11,444 nucleotides of DNA, from IMG/VR virus record IMGVR_UViG_2693429635_000028; one strand, given 5' to 3'. The stretch comes from a virus (Duplodnaviria; Heunggongvirae; Uroviricota; Caudoviricetes). This document shows, in pieces, positions 1 to 11,444 of this stretch. A program made the position numbers and the translations under genes. Position 1 is the first letter of the stretch; each line of letters opens with the position of its first letter. The notes below the pieces were generated by a model, which saw only the letters and a program-made list of their open reading frames with translations, searched no databases and was not told where the DNA came from.

Positions 1-141
1 GAGCACGGGGGCTGGAAAGCCTTTCTGTGGACGCCGCCTTATGAGTGGCGGCAGATAAAGGTGACCTGCGCAAAATGGTCGTCGCGGGTCAGTATGCTGC
101 GTGTTGAGTTCAGCGCAGAGTTTGAACAGGTGGTGAACTGA
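1..141 (+). CDS. M: Minor tail protein M, 3' end only (5'-truncated by the window edge)
   Basis: Frame 1 is open from position 1 to the TGA at 139-141 (...RQIKVTCAKWSSRVSMLRVEFSAEFEQVVN*). The stop overlaps the ATG of L at 141 (ATGA-type coupling), as in the lambda M-L junction. Position directly upstream of L fits lambda gene order. Confidence 0.75.
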   Translation, partial: EHGGWKAFLWTPPYEWRQIKVTCAKWSSRVSMLRVEFSAEFEQVVN

Positions 142-839
142 TGCAGGATATCCGGCAGGAAACACTGAATGAATGCACCCGTGCGGAGCAGTCGGCCAGC
201 GTGGTGCTCTGGGAAATCGACCTGACAGAGGTCGGTGGAGAACGTTATTTTTTCTGTAATGAGCAGAACGAAAAAGGTGAGCCGGTCACCTGGCAGGGGC
301 GACAGTATCAGCCGTATCCCATTCAGGGGAGTGGTTTTGAACTGAATGGCAAAGGCACCAGTACGCGCCCCACACTGACGGTTTCTAACCTGTACGGTAT
401 GGTCACCGGGATGGCGGAAGATCTGCAGAGTCTGGTCGGTGGAACGGTGGTCCGGCGTAAGGTTTACGCCCGTTTTCTGGATGCGGTGAACTTCGTCAAC
501 GGAAACAGTGGCGCCGATCCGGAGCAGGAGGTGATCAGCCGCTGGCGCATTGAGCAGTGCAGCGAACTGAGCGCGGTGAGTGCCTCTTTTGTACTGTCCA
601 CGCCGACGGAAACGGATGGCGCTGTTTTTCCGGGACGTATCATGCTGGCCAACACCTGCACCTGGACCTATCGCGGTGACGAGTGCGGTTATAGCGGTCC
701 GGCTGTCGCGGATGAATATGACCAGCCAACGTCCGATATCACGAAGGATAAATGCAGCAAATGCCTGAGCGGTTGTAAGTTCCGCAATAACGTCGGCAAC
801 TTTGGCGGCTTCCTTTCCATTAACAAACTTTCGCAGTAA
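141..839 (+). CDS. L: Tail tip assembly protein L (minor tail protein L)
   Basis: 232-aa ORF, the same length as lambda gpL. Cys-rich C-terminus (CTWTYRGDECGYSG...CSKCLSGC) typical of gpL. Sits between M and K as in lambda. Confidence 0.93.
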   Translation: MQDIRQETLNECTRAEQSASVVLWEIDLTEVGGERYFFCNEQNEKGEPVTWQGRQYQPYPIQGSGFELNGKGTSTRPTLTVSNLYGMVTGMAEDLQSLVGGTVVRRKVYARFLDAVNFVNGNSGADPEQEVISRWRIEQCSELSAVSASFVLSTPTETDGAVFPGRIMLANTCTWTYRGDECGYSGPAVADEYDQPTSDITKDKCSKCLSGCKFRNNVGNFGGFLSINKLSQ

Positions 840-844
840 ATCCC

Positions 845-1003
845 ATGACACAGACAGAATCAGCGATTCTGGCGCACGCCCGGCGATGTGCGCCAGCGGA
901 GTCGTGCGGCTTCGTGGTAAGCACGCCGGAGGGGGAAAGATATTTCCCCTGCGTGAATATCTCCGGTGAGCCGGAGGCGTATTTCCGAGTCTGCCCTGGC
1001 TGA
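845..1003 (+). pseudogene. K: N-terminal fragment of tail tip assembly protein K (start of the JAB/MPN domain); frame ends prematurely at TGA 1001-1003
   Basis: ATG at 845, 5 nt after the L stop. Translation MTQTESAILAHARRCAPAESCGFVVSTPEGERYFPCVNISGEPEAYFRVCPG* contains the JAB/MPN N-terminal signature (AxxHAxxxxPxExCG). It stops after 52 codons and is out of frame (frame 2) with the downstream K-like ORF (frame 1). Confidence 0.5.
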
Positions 1004-1026
1004 GTGAGGCCGACCGGCGGCTGCAG

Positions 1027-1515
1027 GTGCAGAGTGATTTGCCGTGGTGGCTGGTCTGCCGGGGGACGATTCATAAGTTCCGCTGTGTGCCGCATCTCAC
1101 CGGGCGGCGCTTTGAGCACGGTGTGACGGACTGTTACACACTGTTCCGGGATGCTTATCATCTGGCGGGGATTGAGATGCCGGACTTTCATCGTGAGGAT
1201 GACTGGTGGCGTAACGGCCAGAATCTCTATCTGGATAATCTGGAGGCGACGGGGCTGTATCAGGTGCCGTTGTCAGCGGCACAGCCGGGCGATGTGCTGC
1301 TGTGCTGTTTTGGTTCATCGGTGCCGAATCACGCCGCAATTTACTGCGGCGACGGCGAGCTGCTGCACCATATTCCTGAACAACTGAGCAAACGAGAGAG
1401 GTACACCGACAAATGGCAGCGACGCACACACTCCCTCTGGCGTCACCGGGCATGGCGCGCATCTGCCTTTACGGGGATTTACAACGATTTGGCCGCCGCA
1501 TCGACCTTCGTGTGA
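1027..1515 (+). CDS. K: Tail tip assembly protein K, C-terminal NlpC/P60 (C40 peptidase-like) portion; no ATG start, the first conventional start is GTG at 1027
   Basis: 162-aa ORF (frame 1, open from 970 after TGA 967-969). Contains the SEAD remnant of the JAB motif just upstream (1003-1014) and an NlpC/P60-like Cys/His pair (DCYTLFRDAYHLAG ... HHIPEQ). Overlaps the start of I by 103 nt, as K does in lambda. Confidence 0.75.
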   Translation: MQSDLPWWLVCRGTIHKFRCVPHLTGRRFEHGVTDCYTLFRDAYHLAGIEMPDFHREDDWWRNGQNLYLDNLEATGLYQVPLSAAQPGDVLLCCFGSSVPNHAAIYCGDGELLHHIPEQLSKRERYTDKWQRRTHSLWRHRAWRASAFTGIYNDLAAASTFV

Positions 1516-2084
1516 AAACGGGGGCTGAAGCCATCCGGGCACTGGCCACACAGCTCCCGGCGTTTCGTCAGAAACTGAGCGACGGCTGGTATCAGGTACG
1601 GATTGCCGGGCGGGACGTCAGCACGTCCGGATTGACGGCGCAGTTACATGAGGTTCTGCCTGACGGCGCTGTGATTCATATTGTTCCCAGAGTCGCCGGG
1701 GCCAAGTCAGGTGGCGTATTCCAGATTGTCCTGGGGGCTGCCGCCATTGCCGGATCATTCTTTACCGCCGGAGCCACCCTTGCAGCATGGGGGGCAGCCA
1801 TTGGGGCCGGTGGTATGACCGGCATCCTGTTTTCTCTCGGTGCCAGTATGGTGCTCGGTGGTGTGGCGCAGATGCTGGCACCGAAAGCCAGAACTCCCCG
1901 TACACAGACAACGGATAACGGTAAGCAGAACACCTATTTCTCCTCACTGGATAACATGGTTGCCCAGGGCAATGTTCTGCCTGTTCTGTACGGGGAAATG
2001 CGCGTGGGGTCACGCGTGGTTTCTCAGGAGATCAGCACGGCAGACGAAGGGGACGGTGGTCAGGTTGTGGTGATTGGTCGCTGA
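1413..2084 (+). CDS. I: Tail tip assembly protein I (ubiquitin-like beta-grasp N-terminus, Gly/Ala-rich hydrophobic C-terminus)
   Basis: 223-aa ORF, the same length as lambda gpI. Characteristic Gly/Ala-rich hydrophobic stretch (GAAAIAGSFFTAGATLAAWGAAIGAGGMTGILFSLGASMVLGG). Start lies inside the 3' end of K as in lambda. Confidence 0.93.
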   Translation: MAATHTLPLASPGMARICLYGDLQRFGRRIDLRVKTGAEAIRALATQLPAFRQKLSDGWYQVRIAGRDVSTSGLTAQLHEVLPDGAVIHIVPRVAGAKSGGVFQIVLGAAAIAGSFFTAGATLAAWGAAIGAGGMTGILFSLGASMVLGGVAQMLAPKARTPRTQTTDNGKQNTYFSSLDNMVAQGNVLPVLYGEMRVGSRVVSQEISTADEGDGGQVVVIGR

Positions 2085-2102
2085 TGCAAAATGTTTTATG
2101 TG

Positions 2103-2122
2103 AAACCGCCTGCGGGCGGTTT
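2103..2122 (+). promoter_or_regulatory. Stem-loop in the I-J intergenic region (8-bp stem AAACCGCC/GGCGGTTT, loop TGCG) followed by a T-rich tract; possible attenuator or mRNA-stability element
   Basis: Perfect inverted repeat read directly: aaaccgcc-tgcg-ggcggttt, then tgtcgtttat. An SD-like GAGGA follows at 2138-2142, ahead of the J start at 2145. Confidence 0.4.
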
Positions 2123-2144
2123 TGTCGTTTATGGAGCGTGAGGA

Positions 2145-5100
2145 ATGGGTAAAGGAAGCAGTAAGGGGCATACCCCGCGCGAAGCGAAGGACAACCTGAA
2201 GTCCACGCAGTTGCTGAGTGTGATTGATGCCATCAGTGAAGGGCCGATTGAAGGTCCGGTGGATGGATTAAAAAGCGTGCTGCTGAACAGTACGCCGGTG
2301 CTGGACAGTGATGGGAATACCAACATCGCCGGTGTCACGGTGGTGTTCCGGGCTGGTGAGCAGGAGCAGACTCCGCCGGAGGGATTTGAATCCTCCGGCT
2401 CCGAGACGGTGTTGGGTACGGAAGTGAAATACGACACGCCGATCACCCGCGCCATCACGTCGGCAAACATCGACCGACTGCGCTTTACCTTCGGTGTGCA
2501 GGCACTGGTGGAAACCACCTCAAAGGGGGACCGGAATCCGTCGGAAGTTCGCCTGCTGGTTCAGATACAGCGTAATGGTGGCTGGGTGACGGAAAAAGAC
2601 ATCACCATTAAGGGCAAAACCACCTCGCAGTATCTGGCCTCGGTGGTGGTGGATAACCTGCCGCCGCGCCCGTTTAATATCCGGATGCGCAGAATGACGC
2701 CGGACAGCACCACAGACCAGCTGCAGAACAAAACGCTCTGGTCGTCATACACCGAAATCATCGATGTGAAACAGTGCTACCCGAACACGGCACTGGTCGG
2801 CGTGCAGGTGGACTCGGAACAGTTCGGCAGCCAGCAGGTGAGCCGTAATTATCATCTTCGCGGGCGCATTCTGCAGGTGCCGTCGAACTATAACCCGCAG
2901 ACGCGGCAATACAGCGGTATCTGGGACGGAACGTTTAAGCCAGCATACAGCAACAACATGGCCTGGTGTCTGTGGGATATGCTGACCCATCCGCGCTACG
3001 GCATGGGGAAGCGTCTCGGTGCGGCGGATGTGGACAAATGGGCGCTGTATGTCATCGGCCAGCATTGCGACCAGTCGGTGCCGGATGGCTTTGGTGGCAC
3101 GGAGCCGCGCATCACCTGTAATGCCTACCTGACCACACAGCGCAAGGCGTGGGATGTTCTCAGTGATTTCTGCTCGGCGATGCGCTGTATGCCGGTATGG
3201 AACGGGCAGACGCTGACGTTCGTGCAGGACCGACCGTCGGATAAGGTGTGGACCTATAACCGCAGTAATGTGGTGATGCCGGATGATGGTGCGCCGTTCC
3301 GCTACAGCTTCAGCGCCCTGAAGGACCGCCATAATGCCGTTGAGGTGAACTGGATTGACCCGAATAACGGCTGGGAGACGGCGACAGAGCTTGTGGAGGA
3401 CACGCAGGCCATTGCCCGTTACGGTCGTAACGTCACGAAGATGGATGCTTTTGGCTGTACCAGCCGGGGGCAGGCACACCGCGCCGGGCTGTGGCTGATT
3501 AAAACGGAGCTGCTGGAGACGCAGACCGTGGACTTCAGCGTGGGTGCCGAAGGGCTTCGCCATGTACCGGGCGATGTCATTGAAATCTGCGATGATGACT
3601 ATGCCGGTATCAGCACCGGCGGGCGCGTGCTGGCGGTGAACAGCCAGACCCGGACGCTGACGCTCGACCGTGAAATCACGCTGCCATCTTCCGGTACCAC
3701 GCTGATAAGCCTGGTTGACGGGCAGGGGAGTCCGGTCAGCGTGGAGGTCCAGTCCGTCACCGACGGCGTGAAGGTGAAAGTGAGCCGTGTTCCTGACGGC
3801 GTTGCCGGATACAGCGTATGGGGGCTGAAGTTGCCGACGCTGCGCCAGCGCCTGTTCCGCTGCGTGAGTATCCGTGAGAACGATGACGGCACGTATGCCA
3901 TCACCGCCGTGCAGCATGTACCGGAAAAAGAGGCCATCGTGGATAACGGGGCGCACTTTGACGGCGACCAGAGCGGCACGGTGAATGGTGTCACGCCGCC
4001 AGCGGTGCAGCACCTGACTGCCGAAGTCACCGCAGACAGCGGGGAATATCAGGTGCTGGCGCGCTGGGACACGCCGAAGGTGGTGAAGGGGGTGAGCTTC
4101 CTGCTCCGTCTGACCGTAACAGCGGACGACGGCAGTGAGCGGCTGGTCAGCACGGCCCGGACGACGGAAACCACATACCGCTTCAGGCAACTGGCGCCGG
4201 GGAACTACAGGCTGACAGTCCGGGCGGTAAATGCGTGGGGGCAGCAGGGCGATCCGGCGTCGGTATCGTTCCGGATTGCCGCACCGGCAGCACCGTCGAG
4301 GATTGAGCTGACGCCGGGCTATTTTCAGATAACCGCCACGCCGCATCTTGCCGTTTATGACCCGACGGTACAGTTTGAGTTCTGGTTCTCGGAAAAGCGG
4401 ATTACCGATATCAGGAAGGTTGAAACCACAGCGCGCTATCTTGGTACGGCGCTGTACTGGATAGCCGCCAGTATCAATATCAAACCGGGCCATGATTATT
4501 ATTTTTACGTTCGCAGTGTGAACACCGTTGGCAAATCGGCATTCGTGGAGGCTGTCGGTCAGCCGAGTGATGATGCATCAGGCTATCTGGATTTTTTCAA
4601 AGGCAAGATAGGGAAAACCCATCTGGCTCAGGAGCTGTGGACGCAGATTGATAACGGTCAGCTTGCGCCTGACCTGACTGAAATCAGGACGTCCATAACG
4701 GATGTCAGCAATGAAATAACACAGACCGTCAATAAGAAACTGGAAGACCAGAGTGCAGCGATCCAGCAGATACAGAAGGTTCAGGTTGATACAAATAATA
4801 ACCTGAACAGCATGTGGGCAGTGAAGCTGCAGCAGATGCAGGACGGACGCCTTTATATTGCGGGTATCGGTGCCGGTATTGAGAACACCCCTGACGGCAT
4901 GCAGAGTCAGGTGCTGCTGGCAGCAGACAGGATTGCGATGATTAATCCTGCGAATGGCAACACAAAGCCGATGTTTGTTGGTCAGGGCGATCAGATATTC
5001 ATGAATGAAGTGTTCCTGAAACGCCTGACGGCCCCCACCATTACCAGCGGCGGTAATCCTCCGGCATTTTCCCTGACATCAGACGGGAGACTGACGGCGA

Positions 5101-5642
5101 AAAATGCGGATATCAGTGGCAGTGTGAATGCGAACTCAGGAACGCTCAACAATGTCACGATTAACCAGAACTGTACGATTAAGGGCATGCTGGAGGCGAC
5201 CCAGGTCAGAGGAGATTTCGTTAAAGCTGTATCAAAAGCCTTCCCGAAAAAAGTCGGTACGTGGGGTAACACGGAAACACCAAACGGTACGGTTACAGTC
5301 ACCATCAGCGATGATCATAACTTTGACCGCCAGATTATTATTCCGCCCATTATTTTTAACGGTATAGCGTATGACGATCCGGGGAGCGGAAATAACCCAG
5401 GAGGCACGCGATACACGGGTTATGGTTTTGAAGTTCGCAAAAACGGCGTATTAATCGCATCCAGAGAAACTAAAGGGGCCATTCCCGGTAGTTACAGTGC
5501 AGTTATTGATATGCCGAGTGGCAGGGGAAGCGTCACTCTGGAGTTTAAGATTTTCCAGAAAGGCAATCAGGGGGCAGGCAATATCACCGACTGTACGGTG
5601 ATTGTGACCAAAAAAGCCGCTTCCGGCATCAGTATTCGTTGA
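2145..5642 (+). CDS. J: Host specificity protein J (tail tip central fibre), 1165 aa; N-terminal ~800 aa lambda-like with fibronectin type III repeats, C-terminal receptor-binding region divergent
   Basis: ORF begins [38 protein letters not shown], as lambda gpJ does. FN3-like segment ([26 protein letters not shown]). Good SD (GAGGA) 3 nt upstream. Length is 1165 aa versus 1132 aa for lambda J. Confidence 0.95.
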
Positions 5643-5663
5643 AATATTTATAACCCCAATAAA

Positions 5664-5688
5664 GGGCGTCAGGAATGACGCCTTTTTT
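5664..5688 (+). terminator. Rho-independent terminator between J and lom
   Basis: GC-rich hairpin GGCGTCA-GGAA-TGACGCC (7-bp stem, 4-nt loop, extendable by a G-U pair) immediately followed by TTTTTT (5683-5688). Confidence 0.75.
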
Positions 5689-5712
5689 ATTGCAGAAAAG
5701 CGAGAGGTAATT

Positions 5713-6312
5713 ATGCGTAAAGTTTGTGCAGCCATTTTGTCCGCAGCCATTTGTCTGGCCGTATCCGGTGCGCCTGCATGGGCGTCTGAACATCAGTCCA
5801 CGCTGAGCGCGGGGTATCTTCATGCCTCGACGAACGTCCCCGGCAGTGATGATCTGAACGGGATTAACGTGAAATACCGTTATGAGTTTACGGACACACT
5901 GGGGCTGGTGACGTCATTCAGCTATGCAGGAGACAAGAATCGCCAGCTGACCCGTTACAGCGATACCCGCTGGCATGAAGATTCCGTTCGTAACCGCTGG
6001 TTCAGCGTAATGGCGGGGCCGTCTGTGCGCGTGAATGAATGGTTCAGCGCGTATGCGATGGCGGGTGTAGCTTACAGCCGTGTGTCGACTTTCTCCGGGG
6101 ATTATCTTCGCGTAACTGACAACAAGGGGAAAAAGCACGATGTGCTGACCGGAAGTGATGACGGTCGCCACAGCAACACGTCTCTGGCGTGGGGGGCTGG
6201 CGTGCAGTTTAACCCGACCGAATCCGTGGCCATTGATATTGCTTATGAAGGCTCCGGCAGTGGTGACTGGCGCACTGACGGTTTCATCGTGGGTGTCGGT
6301 TATAAATTCTGA
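5713..6312 (+). CDS. lom: Lom/Ail/PagC/OmpX-family outer-membrane beta-barrel protein (lysogenic-conversion-type moron)
   Basis: 199-aa ORF with an N-terminal signal peptide (MRKVCAAILSAAICLAVSGAPAWA|SE) and a C-terminal ...DIAYEGSGSGDWRTDGFIVGVGYKF ending in an aromatic residue, as in lambda Lom. SD GAGAGG 6 nt upstream. Same position as lambda lom, downstream of J. Confidence 0.9.
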   Translation: MRKVCAAILSAAICLAVSGAPAWASEHQSTLSAGYLHASTNVPGSDDLNGINVKYRYEFTDTLGLVTSFSYAGDKNRQLTRYSDTRWHEDSVRNRWFSVMAGPSVRVNEWFSAYAMAGVAYSRVSTFSGDYLRVTDNKGKKHDVLTGSDDGRHSNTSLAWGAGVQFNPTESVAIDIAYEGSGSGDWRTDGFIVGVGYKF

Positions 6313-6338
6313 TTAGCCAGGTAACACAGTGTTATGAC

Positions 6339-6365
6339 AGCCCGCCGGTTCAGGCGGGCTTTTTT
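6339..6365 (+). terminator. Rho-independent terminator between lom and stf
   Basis: Hairpin AGCCCGCC-GGTTCA-GGCGGGCT (8-bp stem, 6-nt loop) followed by TTTTT (6361-6365). Confidence 0.8.
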
Positions 6366-6376
6366 GTGGGGTGAAT

Positions 6377-9300
6377 ATGGCAGTAAAGATTTCAGGTGTA
6401 CTGAAAGACGGCACAGGAAAACCGGTACAGAACTGCACAATCCAGCTGAAAGCAAAACGTAACAGCACCACGGTGGTGGTGAACACGCTGGCCTCAGAAA
6501 ATCCGGATGAAGCCGGGCGTTACAGCATGGACGTTGAGTACGGGCAGTACAGCGTTATTCTGTTGGTGGAGGGATTCCCGCCGTCACATGCCGGGACCAT
6601 CACCGTGTATGAAGATTCCCGACCCGGTACGCTGAATGATTTTCTCGGTGCCATGACGGAGGATGATGCCCGTCCTGAGGCACTGCGCCGTTTTGAACTG
6701 ATGGTGGAAGAGGTGGCGCGTAACGCGTCCGCGGTGGCACAGAACACGGCAGCCGTGAAGAAGTCAGCCAGCGATGCCAGCACATCAGCCCGTGAGGCGG
6801 CAACCCATGCGACTGATGCTGCAGGCTCAGCACGCGCAGCCAGCACGTCAGCCGGACAGGCCGCGTCGTCGGCTCAGTCAGCATCTTCCAGCGCAGGAAC
6901 GGCATCAACAAAGGCCAGTGAAGCATCGAAAAGTGCTGCTGCTGCAGAGTCCTCAAAAAGCGCGGCAGCTACCAGTGCCGCTGCGGCGAAAACGTCAGAA
7001 ACGAATGCGGCAGCGTCACAACAATCAGCAGCCACTTCTGCATCCGCCGCGACCACGAAGGCGTCAGAAGCAGCCACCTCAGCCCGGGATGCGGCGGCCT
7101 CAAAAGAGGCAGCGAAATCATCAGAAACGAACGCATCATCAAGCGCCAGTAGTGCCGCTTCCTCGGCAACGGCGGCAGCAAATTCTGCGAAGGCGGCCAA
7201 AACGTCTGAGACAAACGCCAGGTCTTCTGAAACGGCAGCGGGACAGAGCGCCTCGGCTGCGGCAGGCTCAAAAACAGCGGCTGCGTCGTCTGCCAGTGCC
7301 GCGTCAACAAGTGCCGGGCAGGCCTCAGCCAGTGCCACCGCCGCCGGAAAATCGGCAGAAAGTGCCGCATCGTCTGCTTCAACAGCCACAACGAAGGCTG
7401 GCGAAGCCACTGAACAGGCCAGCGCAGCAGCGAGGTCTGCTTCCGCAGCGAAGACATCCGAGACGAACGCGAAAGCGTCGGAAACCAGCGCAGAATCCTC
7501 AAAAACGGCTGCCGCATCGTCCGCCAGTTCGGCGGCGTCATCGGCATCATCGGCGTCTGCTTCAAAAGATGAGGCGACCAGACAAGCGTCCGCAGCGAAG
7601 GGCAGCGCCACGACAGCATCCACGAAGGCGACAGAGGCAGCTGGCAGTGCGACGGCGGCAGCACAGAGCAAAAGTACGGCGGAATCCGCGGTAACGCGCG
7701 CCGAGACAGCGGCAAAACGGGCAGAGGATATTGCATCCGCCGTGGCGCTTGAGGATGCAAGTACGACGAAAAAGGGGATAGTACAGCTCAGCAGTGCGAC
7801 CAACAGTACGTCTGAAACGCTGGCGGCAACGCCAAAGGCAGTAAAATCAGCCTATGACAATGCAGAGAAACGTCTGCAGAAAGACCAGAACGGCGCTGAT
7901 ATACCCGATAAGGGACGCTTCCTGAACAACATTAACGCGGTCAGTAAAACAGACTTTGCTGATAAGCGTGGTATGCGTTATGTGCGGGTTAACGCTCCTG
8001 CAGGTGCAATATCTGGAAAATATTACCCTGTTGTTGTTATGCGTTCTGCTGGCTCAGTAAGCGAACTGGCATCAAGGGTCATTATCACCACGGCAACGCG
8101 AACCGCAGGCGATCCGATGAATAACTGCGAGTTTAACGGATTTGTTATGCCTGGTGGCTGGACTGACAGGGGGCGTTATGCTTATGGAATGTTCTGGCAA
8201 TATCAAAACAATGAACGAGCCATCCACTCAATAATGATGAGTAATAAGGGCGATGATTTGCGCTCTGTGTTCTATGTTGATGGCGCTGCTTTCCCTGTTT
8301 TTGCGTTTATCGAAGATGGCCTGTCAATATCCGCACCTGGTGCTGATCTCGTTGTTAATGATACGACCTATAAGTTTGGGGCAACAAATCCGGCGACTGA
8401 ATGTATCGCGGCGGACGTTATCCTTGATTTTAAGAGTGGGCGTGGTTTTTATGAGTCTCATTCGTTAATCGTTAACGATAACTTGTCGTGCAAAAAACTT
8501 TTTGCCACAGACGAAATTGTAGCGCGTGGTGGTAATCAGATTCGAATGATAGGTGGGGAGTATGGGGCATTATGGCGTAATGATGGCGCTAAAACTTACC
8601 TGCTGCTTACCAATCAAGGTGATGTTTATGGTGGCTGGAATACATTAAGACCGTTTGCTATTGATAACGCAACCGGCGAACTGGTTATTGGAACCAAACT
8701 GTCCGCAAGTCTGAACGGTAATGCATTAACAGCAACAAAGCTGCAAACGCCAAGACGGGTTTCTGGTGTTGAGTTTGATGGTTCCAAAGATATTACTTTA
8801 ACCGCCGCGCATGTGGCTGCTTTTGCCAGAAGGGCAACGGATACATATGCCGATGCGGATGGTGGCGTTCCCTGGAATGCCGAATCAGGCGCTTACAATG
8901 TCACCCGCTCTGGCGACAGCTATATTCTGGTTAACTTCTATACCGGAGTCGGAAGTTGCCGGACCCTGCAGATGAAGGCGCATTACAGAAATGGTGGTCT
9001 GTTCTACCGTTCTTCAAGAGATGGCTATGGTTTTGAGGAAGACTGGGCAGAAGTTTATACCTCGAAAAATCTTCCACCAGAAAGCTACCCAGTCGGCGCA
9101 CCAATCCCGTGGCCATCAGATACCGTTCCGTCTGGTTATGCCCTGATGCAGGGGCAGACTTTTGACAAATCTGCCTACCCGAAACTTGCTGCCGCTTATC
9201 CGTCAGGCGTGATCCCTGATTTGCGTGGCTGGACGATTAAGGGCAAGCCCGCCAGTGGTCGTGCCGTATTGTCTCAGGAACAGGATGGCATTAAATCGCA

Positions 9301-9775
9301 TACCCACAGCGCCAGCGCATCCAGTACGGATTTGGGGACGAAAACCACATCGTCGTTTGATTACGGCACTAAATCCACGAATAACACTGGTGCGCATACC
9401 CATAGTTTAAGTGGCAGCACGAATGCAGCTGGTAATCACAGCCATAGAGATGGCCGTCGATTTAACCCCAGTGTTTTTAAAGATACTTATCAATATGGTT
9501 ATACAAGCTCAGGTCAAAATACCTGGGGTGTACAAGGCTCAGTAGGTATGTCTACGGGGTGGTTAGCGAATACCAGTACAGATGGTAATCATAGCCATTC
9601 ACTGTCCGGCACAGCAGCATCTGCAGGTGCACACGCGCATACTGTCGGTATTGGTGCTCATACGCACTCCGTTGCGATTGGTTCACATGGACACACCATC
9701 ACCGTTAACGCTGCTGGTAACGCGGAAAACACCGTCAAAAACATCGCATTTAACTATATTGTGAGGCTTGCATAA
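6377..9775 (+). CDS. stf: Side tail fibre protein Stf, long intact form (~1132 aa from the ATG at 6377; the ORF track extends to the GTG at 6371)
   Basis: N-terminus [26 protein letters not shown]... matches lambda Stf (orf-401) as I recall it. Long Ala/Ser-rich repeat region. C-terminus with repeated HxH motifs and ...[26 protein letters not shown], as at the lambda Stf / T4 gp37-type fibre tip. Stop TAA overlaps the tfa ATG (ATAATG). Confidence 0.9.
6730..7730 (+). repeat. Low-complexity Ala/Ser/Thr-rich coding repeat inside stf, with a recurring A-A-K-T/S-S-E-T-N-A motif (4 copies)
   Basis: Motif copies at about 6988-7014, 7116-7139, 7200-7223 and 7452-7475 (AAKTSETNA / AAKSSETNA). The composition generates long spurious ORFs in other frames and on the opposite strand. 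Confidence 0.8.
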
Positions 9776-10359
9776 TGGCATTCAGAATGAGTGAACAAGC
9801 ACGGACCATAAAAATTTATAATCTGCTGGCCGGAACTAATGAATTTATTGGTGAAGGTGATGCATATATTCCGCCTCATACAGGTCTGCCAGCAAACAGT
9901 ACCGATATTGCACCACCAGATATTCCTGCTGGCTTTGTGGCTGTTTTCAACAGTGATGAGGCATCGTGGCATCTCGTTGAAGACCATCGGGGTAAAACGG
10001 TTTATGACGTAGCGTCAGGGGACGAGTTATTTATTTCTGAACTCGGTCCGTTACCGGAAAATGTTACCTGGTTATCGCCGGAAGGGGAGTTTCAGAAGTG
10101 GAACGGCACAGCCTGGGTGAAAGATGCAGAAGCAGAAAAACTGTTCCGGATCCGAGAGGCGGAAGAAATAAAAAACAGCCTGATGCAGGTAGCCAGTGAG
10201 CATATTGCGCCACTTCAGGATGCTGTAGATCTGGAAATCGCAACGGAGGAAGAAACCTCATTGCTGGAAGCCTGGAAAAAGTATCGGGTGTTGCTGAACC
10301 GTGTTGATACATCAACTGCACCTGATATTGAGTGGCCTACGAACCCTGTCAGGGAGTAA
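9775..10359 (+). CDS. tfa: Tail fibre assembly protein Tfa (chaperone for Stf)
   Basis: 194-aa ORF, the same length as lambda Tfa and closely matching it as recalled ([78 protein letters not shown]...). Start is translationally coupled to the stf stop. Confidence 0.95.
10195..10314 (+). repeat. Direct repeat copy 1 (tfa 3' coding segment), about 89% identical to 11244-11363
   Basis: Manual alignment: 13 mismatches over 120 nt between 10195-10314 and 11244-11363, same orientation. Confidence 0.85.
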
Positions 10360-10413: not shown

Positions 10414-11082
10414 CTATTTTTTCCCTGAAGCGGAAAACATTACTACAGTACCTTGAACCTTGGTTTTAACATTCTCGAAATGCTCTGAGAGTATATGTGT
10501 TAAGCCTTCTTCGGAATCTTTTGTGTTTGAAAAGATGCCTTTCTGATTGTAAATGCGCATCAGTTTTTGACCGAAGCTATTGTGCACAACTCCATCGCCA
10601 AGAATTGTGGCTCCGTATAGAGTTCCATCGTCAGTTAAGGCCTGCGCCGCATTGCGTATTACACAGCTTTTTGTAGATATATTTCCAGGCAGGCAGTGAA
10701 GAAGGTAAAACATGGAAATGGAATCAAATTGACCATGTAACGCCGCGGGATAAGGTTCAAAAACATCATGGCTAATTTTATGTTTAATTTTTGATTCCCC
10801 AGCCCTTGTAGATGCCGCGTTCAGGCTAGCTTCGTTCAAATCCATTAAAGATATCAGACTACTCTCAGGTACGTGAGTAAGGTAAAACCCAGTTCCAACA
10901 CCAATATCCAGATGGTTGTTACCTAAATGTTCCAGAAAGTGTGGAAGAAGGTGTTCCTTTGTAGGACATCCCCATGCAAGCCGATTTGATACTCCCAAAA
11001 CCCACCAGTCATAAAGCTTTAGGGTAAGTGGTGTGTAAATTTTAGCCCCATCATCTGTGTTTTTTTTCATTAATTTCACCAT
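10414..11082 (-). CDS. Putative class I SAM-dependent methyltransferase encoded by a low-GC moron (222 aa; the true start may be the internal ATG at 11070, which has a GGTGA SD)
   Basis: Motif I-like HLDIGVGTGFY followed about 20 aa later by an acidic residue (LISLMDLNEAS), consistent with a Rossmann-fold SAM-binding site. Markedly more AT-rich than the flanking tail genes. Opposite strand to the tail operon. By recollection only (unverified), similar cassettes such as ybcY in E. coli DLP12 sit between tfa copies. Confidence 0.6.
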   Translation of the reverse strand: MVKLMKKNTDDGAKIYTPLTLKLYDWWVLGVSNRLAWGCPTKEHLLPHFLEHLGNNHLDIGVGTGFYLTHVPESSLISLMDLNEASLNAASTRAGESKIKHKISHDVFEPYPAALHGQFDSISMFYLLHCLPGNISTKSCVIRNAAQALTDDGTLYGATILGDGVVHNSFGQKLMRIYNQKGIFSNTKDSEEGLTHILSEHFENVKTKVQGTVVMFSASGKK

Positions 11083-11138: not shown

Positions 11139-11444
11139 ATGCTGCCGCAGCATAGCGATATTGAAATAGCCTGGTATGCTTCGATACAACAGGAGCCGAA
11201 TGGCTGGAAGACCGTCACCACACAGTTCTACATCCAGGAATTCAGTGAGTATATTGCGCCACTGCAGGATGCTGTAGATCTGGAAATCGCAACGGAGGAA
11301 GAAAGATCGTTGCTGGAGGCATGGAATAAATATCGGGTATTGTTGAATCGAGTTGATACATCAGTAGCTCTGGGTATGAAGCTGTTTGTAACTCATGTTA
11401 CAGTAACAGTCATTACTATCTCGAAGGTGCAAAATGTATATTGA
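11139..11444 (+). CDS. Truncated/remnant tail fibre assembly (Tfa-like) protein, 101 aa, probably a relic of a second tfa copy
   Basis: The internal segment [39 protein letters not shown] is near-identical to Tfa residues encoded at 10195-10314. N- and C-terminal flanks are unrelated to Tfa. SD-like AAGGGG upstream of the ATG at 11139. The stop coincides with the window end. Confidence 0.55.
11244..11363 (+). repeat. Direct repeat copy 2 (inside the tfa-like remnant), about 89% identical to 10195-10314
   Basis: Same alignment as copy 1. Similarity ends abruptly after ...GTTGATACATCA in both copies. Confidence 0.85.

Follow-up and report, generated by a model that had tools for sequence, protein, structure and literature searches.

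The gene lom is a textbook moron, and in the stretch of viral DNA analysed here (11,444 nucleotides, called the window throughout) it lies between two hairpins with the appearance of transcription terminators. The question considered is whether lom is an independent transcription unit or one more late gene of its phage. An initial annotation had described it as an insulated cassette between strong intrinsic terminators, encoding a mosaic protein with a possible role in virulence. We consider it very probable that the locus is a standard lambda-like J-lom-stf segment, in which lom occupies a variable cargo slot, is flanked by terminators and would be expressed late according to the lambda model. 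The cassette has the look of a late-operon gene through which antiterminated polymerase reads, and not of an autonomous unit.

Gene content of the window

The window covers the L-K-I-J-lom-stf-tfa portion of a lambda-like late operon, with Pfam assignments for L, I, Tfa and both halves of K. Over positions 1-4641, identity to lambda is 96-99%, from which we infer that the window belongs to a Q-antiterminated late operon. The features discussed below are the following.

2145-5642, plus strand: J, tail-tip or host-specificity protein of 1165 aa (stop codon 5640-5642)
5664-5688, plus strand: T1, predicted intrinsic-terminator hairpin followed by T6, starting 22 nt past the J stop
5702-5707, plus strand: Shine-Dalgarno sequence GAGAGG of lom, 5 nt ahead of the ATG
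5713-6312, plus strand: lom, 199-aa precursor of a predicted outer-membrane beta-barrel protein of the Ail/Lom family
6232/6233, no strand: mosaic junction relative to lambda, in lom codon 174, from change-point analysis
6339-6365, plus strand: T2, predicted terminator hairpin with T-run, 26 nt past the lom stop and 11 nt ahead of the stf ATG
6377-9775, plus strand: stf, side tail fibre of 1132 aa
9775-10359, plus strand: tfa, tail fibre assembly protein of 194 aa (Pfam Caudo_TAP, 151.6 bits)

Up to nt 4641, J shares 96% identity with lambda; it diverges over its C-terminal ~330 aa, where the two proteins share 51% of their residues. The GAGAGG ahead of lom stands at the place where a ribosome-binding site is annotated in the record of phage 434. 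As in lambda orf-401, we take the ATG at 6377 as the true start of stf; the GTG at 6371 given in the list of open reading frames is in frame with it. Stf is unbroken in the window (1132 aa), whereas it is frameshifted and split in lambda PaPa, and its residues 902-1132 (9080-9772) match the receptor-binding tip of T4 gp37 (PDB 2xgf, 288.5 bits).

Several further observations concern the remainder of the window. K is broken relative to lambda by a 1-nt insertion at ~979 and by the absence of ~73 nt, lambda 14275-14348, between 987 and 988. The K region (845-1515, breakpoint 979-988) is read as two open reading frames, 845-1003 with the N-terminal part of Prok-JAB and 1027-1515 with NlpC/P60, and the missing 73 nt encode the annotated lambda K start and the JAMM motif (..GEIVALVHSHPG). 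Because K is disrupted while all top phage matches listed keep the 73-nt stretch, the window may derive from a defective prophage. Rfam IS009 (RF02111) is matched over its full length at 10118-10316 on the plus strand, wholly within the tfa coding sequence, with 227.8 bits where the gathering score is 117. On the 3' side of tfa, the minus strand carries a 221-aa open reading frame resembling SAM-methyltransferases (10414-11082), and a second, partial Caudo_TAP frame follows on the plus strand (11139-11444), its DNA being 85% identical to part of lambda tfa. An open reading frame of 582 aa runs antisense to J (2745-4493, minus strand).

Structure and conservation of the two predicted terminators

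T1 forms the stem-loop GGCGTCA-GGAA-TGACGCC at 5665-5682, extendable via G5664/T5683; its 7-8 bp include 5-6 GC pairs, the loop has 4 nt, and U6 follows (T6 at 5683-5688). T2 reads AGCCCGCC-GGTTCA-GGCGGGCT (6339-6360), with 8 bp, of which 7 are GC pairs, a loop of 6 nt and U5-6 encoded by the T-run at 6360-6365. Stem, loop and U-tract of both agree with an intrinsic terminator. Hairpin-only free energies amount to -13.0 kcal/mol for T1 and -17.6 kcal/mol for T2. Folded in context and compared with shuffled sequences, T1 reaches -17.6 kcal/mol (z = -4.4) and T2 a z of -2.75.

A strict scan of both strands of the window accepted only stems of 7 perfectly paired bp, 5 or more of them GC, that enclosed a loop of 3-8 nt and were followed by 8 bases with no fewer than 6 T. 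T1 and T2 were the only sites found in the 11.4 kb. Both lie on the plus strand, co-oriented with the genes, and they occupy the two intergenic gaps around lom, which are the only ones in this part of the window. Across 500 dinucleotide shuffles the same scan gave a mean of 0.014 sites per window, and two sites occurred in none of them. A looser scan gave 14 sites with 11.4 expected, hence no overall enrichment, and ranked T1 and T2 first. The placement of the two elements is non-random and both are predicted canonical intrinsic terminators; the coordinates at which the initial annotation had placed them, 5664-5688 and 6339-6365, are correct on the sequence.

Searching Rfam at lom and its flanks returned no family but only chance matches below threshold, namely STnc40 (23 bits, gathering score 45) and Trp_leader (21.7 bits, gathering score 41). 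The lambda sRNAs PreS, LPR2 and 6S were discarded as candidates, being encoded elsewhere, as was the 20-nt 24B_1 RNA, which the lambda-type region lacks and which lies 3' of lom only in phages of the phi24B/933W type. A literature search for Term-seq or 3'-end data on lom and for lambda terminators named 'tJ' yielded nothing relevant.

To follow both elements across phages, 80 viral contigs whose Lom is at least 96% identical to that of the window were compared together with lambda, 434 and mEp460; the upstream sequence came in 16 variants and the downstream sequence in 17. T1 occurs in 10 distinct variants, and each keeps 7 of 7 pairs (100% of 70 cells), whereas register-shifted controls pair in 24-59% of cells. 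Two of the pairs have changed on both sides (GC to or from AU, CG to or from UA), with G-U intermediates. To judge from these substitutions, the pairing of T1 is kept by selection. T2 is almost invariant and displays one-sided G-U changes only (in lambda, contig L083 and Gifsy-1); because double compensatory changes are absent, it is its stability and position that point to T2 as a terminator. The segment 5683-5718, from T6 through the lom ATG, is invariant in all type-A loci (the common lom class described below) despite their differing J 3' ends. Between the J stop and T1, the sequence TTATAACCC (5646-5657) is likewise conserved in all type-A loci, though their J C-termini differ.

The terminator-lom-terminator architecture is also present in lambda, 434, mEp460 and 2G7b, and the GenBank records of 434 (OL657226) and mEp460 (JQ182728) annotate both hairpins as (rho-independent) terminators. 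Even where the cargo is not lom, as in Gifsy-1 and 1720a-02, a strong hairpin with U-tract stands 11-16 nt before the stf ATG; in 1720a-02, the position of T2 is held by an unrelated hairpin with T7. Because it recurs in these two phages, a terminator abutting the stf start is a conserved architecture, and the dependence of stf-tfa on read-through would be conserved likewise across these phages.

Two other roles for the hairpins have to be weighed here. They might mainly serve as 3'-end stabilisers or processing boundaries of the late transcript, giving J, lom and stf-tfa different half-lives. Stable GC-rich hairpins do mark both gene boundaries, late polymerase is expected to pass them anyway, and translation of Lom is strong at late times, while few copies of Stf are presumably needed. 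A block to exonucleases needs no U-tract, however, and the 6-U tract abutting each stem is conserved; the annotators of the phage records also called both sites rho-independent terminators. A stabilising role is compatible with termination; as the main function of the hairpins we regard it as very improbable. Alternatively, T1 could be a bidirectional terminator that mainly stops leftward antisense transcription from the b-region side into J. To the left of its stem stands AATAAA and to the right TTTTTTATT, and the minus strand of T1 is scored by the scan and folds at -16.1 kcal/mol (z -4.25). The left A-tract, however, is replaced by CCATATACGGGCGCC or CCCAGAACGGGCG in other variants while the right T6 is invariant, the tail on the minus strand is merely CUUUAUUGGG, and a leftward transcript must first cross ~4.7 kb of tfa, stf and lom. 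A mainly leftward-acting T1 is therefore exceedingly improbable, and we retain the reading of T1 and T2 as terminators of rightward transcription.

The Lom protein, its mosaic structure and its possible function

The membership of the lom product in the Ail/Lom family, as initially proposed, is borne out by Pfam PF06316, which scores 407.7 bits (cut-off 23) with residues 1-199 aligned to a profile of 199 positions. As lambda Lom scores 182.4 bits against the same profile, we class the window allele as the common type ('type-A') and lambda Lom as an outlier. By megablast, the lom region matches 212 phage records, the best at 99.8%. Of 5426 complete E. coli genomes, 4086, about three quarters, carry the 741-bp cassette at a coverage of 80% or more, with a median of two copies and a maximum of 14. 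Lom also aligns over its full length to lambda Lom in PDB 9wso (7e-51), OmpX and Ail.

Several features point to an eight-stranded outer-membrane barrel of the Ail/Lom/OmpX type. Read from the translation, the N-terminus carries an AxA-type signal peptide, MRKVCAAILSAAICLAVSGAPAWA before SE, which likely comprises residues 1-24 (..APAWA before SE), and the C-terminus ends in the aromatic beta-signal ..FIVGVGYKF. Mature Lom aligns end-to-end with the Ail/OmpX/PagC barrels (PDB 3QRA, 1QJ8), with which it has the strand motifs NVKYRYE, AGP, GAGVQFNP and GVGYKF in common. By alignment, its loops 2 and 3 have 24 and 37 residues, compared with 16 and 20 in OmpX, and lom differs in being phage-borne. 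An AlphaFold2 model computed from a 22-sequence alignment was unusable (pLDDT 31.8).

Compared with lambda, lom has a sharp change point at 6232/6233, in codon 174 (log-likelihood ratio 87). Nucleotide identity to lambda lom is 53.6% to the left of this junction and ~90% to the right, where only 5 mismatches occur up to the lom stop and near-identity continues via the 3' UTR and T2 into the first part of stf. Leftward, the divergent block runs unbroken from lom codon 173 across T1 and through the last ~330 codons of J. At the protein level, identity to lambda Lom is 45% overall and ~40% over residues 1-173, and the last 26 residues are identical. The lambda-like C-terminal strands of the initial annotation are thus confirmed, the peptide quoted there being identical in lambda Lom. 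Its assignment of the divergence to the N-terminal half has to be corrected: as the junction lies at codon 174, the divergent part makes up 87% of Lom, residues 1-173, and is continuous with that of the J C-terminus.

The initial annotation had further suggested that the variation reflects surface-exposed loops. Strand and loop limits were set by HMMER alignment to OmpX, whose strand limits and topology we take to apply to Lom. Within residues 29-171, identity to lambda Lom is 36/60 in strands (60%), 18/72 in loops (25%) and 4/11 in turns, and loop 1 is longer by 8 residues in lambda. Loop variation accordingly holds as a tendency, as the loops are 25% and the strands 60% identical, but the strands have diverged as well. 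The pattern relative to lambda is primarily that of one recombination junction. Ordinary homologous recombination would have produced the mosaic Lom, joining one divergent block, from the J C-terminus to lom codon 173, to a near-identical block of codons 174-199, the 3' UTR, T2 and the 5' end of stf.

Variability within the common allele class was mapped on 32 full-length cluster representatives. It clusters in three places: the signal peptide, loop 1 at residues 39-49, and residues 73-81, where loop 2 begins. Discrete loop-2 alleles, e.g., GDKNRQLTR and NAEDEQKTH, reassort freely with the various alleles of the signal peptide and of loop 1, and some proteins of the class join a lambda-like N-terminus to a type-A remainder. 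The variation of Lom is most readily described as the ordinary intragenic mosaicism of a surface protein.

While the family assignment of Lom stands, the virulence association that came with it is one reading only. The classical view of Lom centres on adhesion and virulence, in a literature that concerns lambda Lom only. In a study from 2025, overexpressed Lom protected specifically against lambda-vir, and homotypic phage exclusion was proposed. PDB entry 9wso holds lambda Lom (206 aa) together with maltoporin (LamB), the maltoporin sequence being the same as in the J-LamB complex 8xcj, which suggests, for lambda Lom and not for the window allele, a Lom-LamB complex and thereby direct masking of the receptor.

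Extended to type-A, Lom could be a strictly Q-dependent late protein that masks a phage receptor on the infected cell and not a virulence factor of lysogenic conversion; we hold this to be unlikely. If it were true, the promoter-less, terminator-bracketed layout would enforce late-only expression, and the reassorting alleles of loops 1 and 2 would tune which outer-membrane protein is masked. A coupling of the Lom type to the J receptor-binding type was rejected for the sample examined: the same Lom allele occurs with four or more J C-terminal types, 100, 77, 68 and 54% identical to that of the window. This mixture of J types is one point against a simple coupling under receptor masking.

Transcription of lom and comparison with known systems

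There is no room for a promoter directly ahead of either lom or stf. The 24 nt between the T-tract of T1 and the lom ATG are filled by the ribosome-binding site, and exactly 11 nt separate the T-run of T2 from the stf ATG at 6377. Since no promoter can fit into 11 nt, stf-tfa must rely on read-through, as the initial annotation had concluded, with tfa being the last gene to depend on passage of both T1 and T2. A consensus scan, which is weak evidence, found no sigma-70-like promoter on the plus strand from 1161 to 8898, and reading 5620-5712 by eye revealed TATAAC only, without a -35 element. The term 'insulated cassette' implies an independent unit and in this has to be corrected, the scan having found no promoter and the 24-nt gap being filled by the ribosome-binding site.

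During lytic growth, according to the lambda model, Q-modified late polymerase would ignore T1 and T2, so that lom, stf and tfa would be transcribed from pR' as late genes in one long RNA. In a repressed prophage, unmodified polymerase that started upstream would halt at T1, and lom transcripts would end at T2; such stops would keep the tail-fibre genes silent. The literature describes Lom as made strongly late in infection and a promoter of lom as little known. One microarray study did not detect lom in a lambda lysogen, whereas other papers list lambda lom among the genes expressed in lysogens. Expression of lambda lom in a lysogen requires some promoter, and none was found here.

These reports bear on the possibility that lom is a true autonomous moron, with a non-consensus or activator-dependent promoter driving expression in the lysogen and T1, as a leaky attenuator, holding it at a low level. 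Candidate sites for such a promoter include the conserved TTATAAC just 5' of T1 or the 3' end of J itself. Apart from the reported lysogen expression of lambda lom, this explanation could draw on the conserved TTATAACCC, which matches a -10 box in 5 of 6 positions and is kept next to divergent J ends, and on Fels-1, whose lom-like gene, with 126 nt of AT-rich upstream sequence and its own terminator, has a classical moron layout. The -10 match, however, has at 17-nt spacing only GCATCA, which is not acceptable as a -35 element, the promoter scan came out empty on the plus strand from 1161 to 8898, and a start ~7 nt past TATAAC would put the whole of T1 at the RNA 5' end, such that the RNA ends after ~28 nt. 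Any lysogenic promoter upstream of T1 would demand that T1 leak. A conserved promoter inside J is unlikely because the upstream J C-termini are 50-100% identical among phages with the same lom, and lom was undetectable by microarray in the lambda lysogen. We therefore judge autonomous expression of lom to be quite unlikely and keep to the late-operon reading.

The closest comparison is lambda itself, where J, lom and stf (orf-401) follow in the same order (NC_001416, 18904-19650). Its hairpin past J reads CGTCCG-GGAA-CGGGCG followed by TTTTATT, and is weaker than T1 of the window (-9.0 compared with -13.0 kcal/mol; 4 U, A, 2 U). The lambda hairpin past lom, AGCCCGCC..GGTGGGCT followed by T6, stands 11 nt before the stf ATG, as T2 does in the window. 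In 434 and mEp460, Lom is 96-97% identical to that of the window, and hairpins and ribosome-binding sites are at the same positions; the T1 stem of 434 differs by two compensatory pair changes (GGCACCA..TGGTGCC), and its J C-terminus is 77% identical to that of the window.

The literature treats lom as a moron. Lambdoid morons are described as non-essential genes of the lysogen-benefit type, lying between conserved late genes and followed by their own terminator (Juhala et al. 2000; Cumby, Davidson and Maxwell 2012, PMC3594210). The J-stf slot is polymorphic. In Gifsy-1 (L089, 1705-1947), it holds a gene for an 80-aa protein with signal peptide, followed by a terminator abutting stf, and in 1720a-02 two tiny open reading frames are followed by such a terminator. 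One of the two, of 46 aa (L090, 1718-1858), looks Hok/Gef-like (..SLCEFRFRIAGAEIAAFLQ..). In Fels-1, the lom-like gene sits between M and L; a small hairpin before it was dismissed as an analogue of T1 (z -1.1, not significant). The window lom agrees with the moron description in having its own terminator, T2. It departs from it in three ways: no promoter of its own is detectable (by consensus scan, which is weak evidence), a terminator also precedes it, and its composition is not distinct, with ~54% GC next to 47-62% in its neighbours (by window, 0.50-0.58 in lom, 0.46-0.55 at the J 3' end and 0.52-0.63 at the stf 5' end).

The window matters mainly for its correct annotation, and it offers a good worked example of the J-stf cargo slot. 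It adds nothing new: lom is a textbook moron, its two terminators have been annotated in 434 and mEp460, and the cassette is widespread among E. coli genomes. The terminator-lom-terminator layout is a conserved trait of lambda-like phages that public phage records already annotate, and the gene is the ordinary lom of such a phage.
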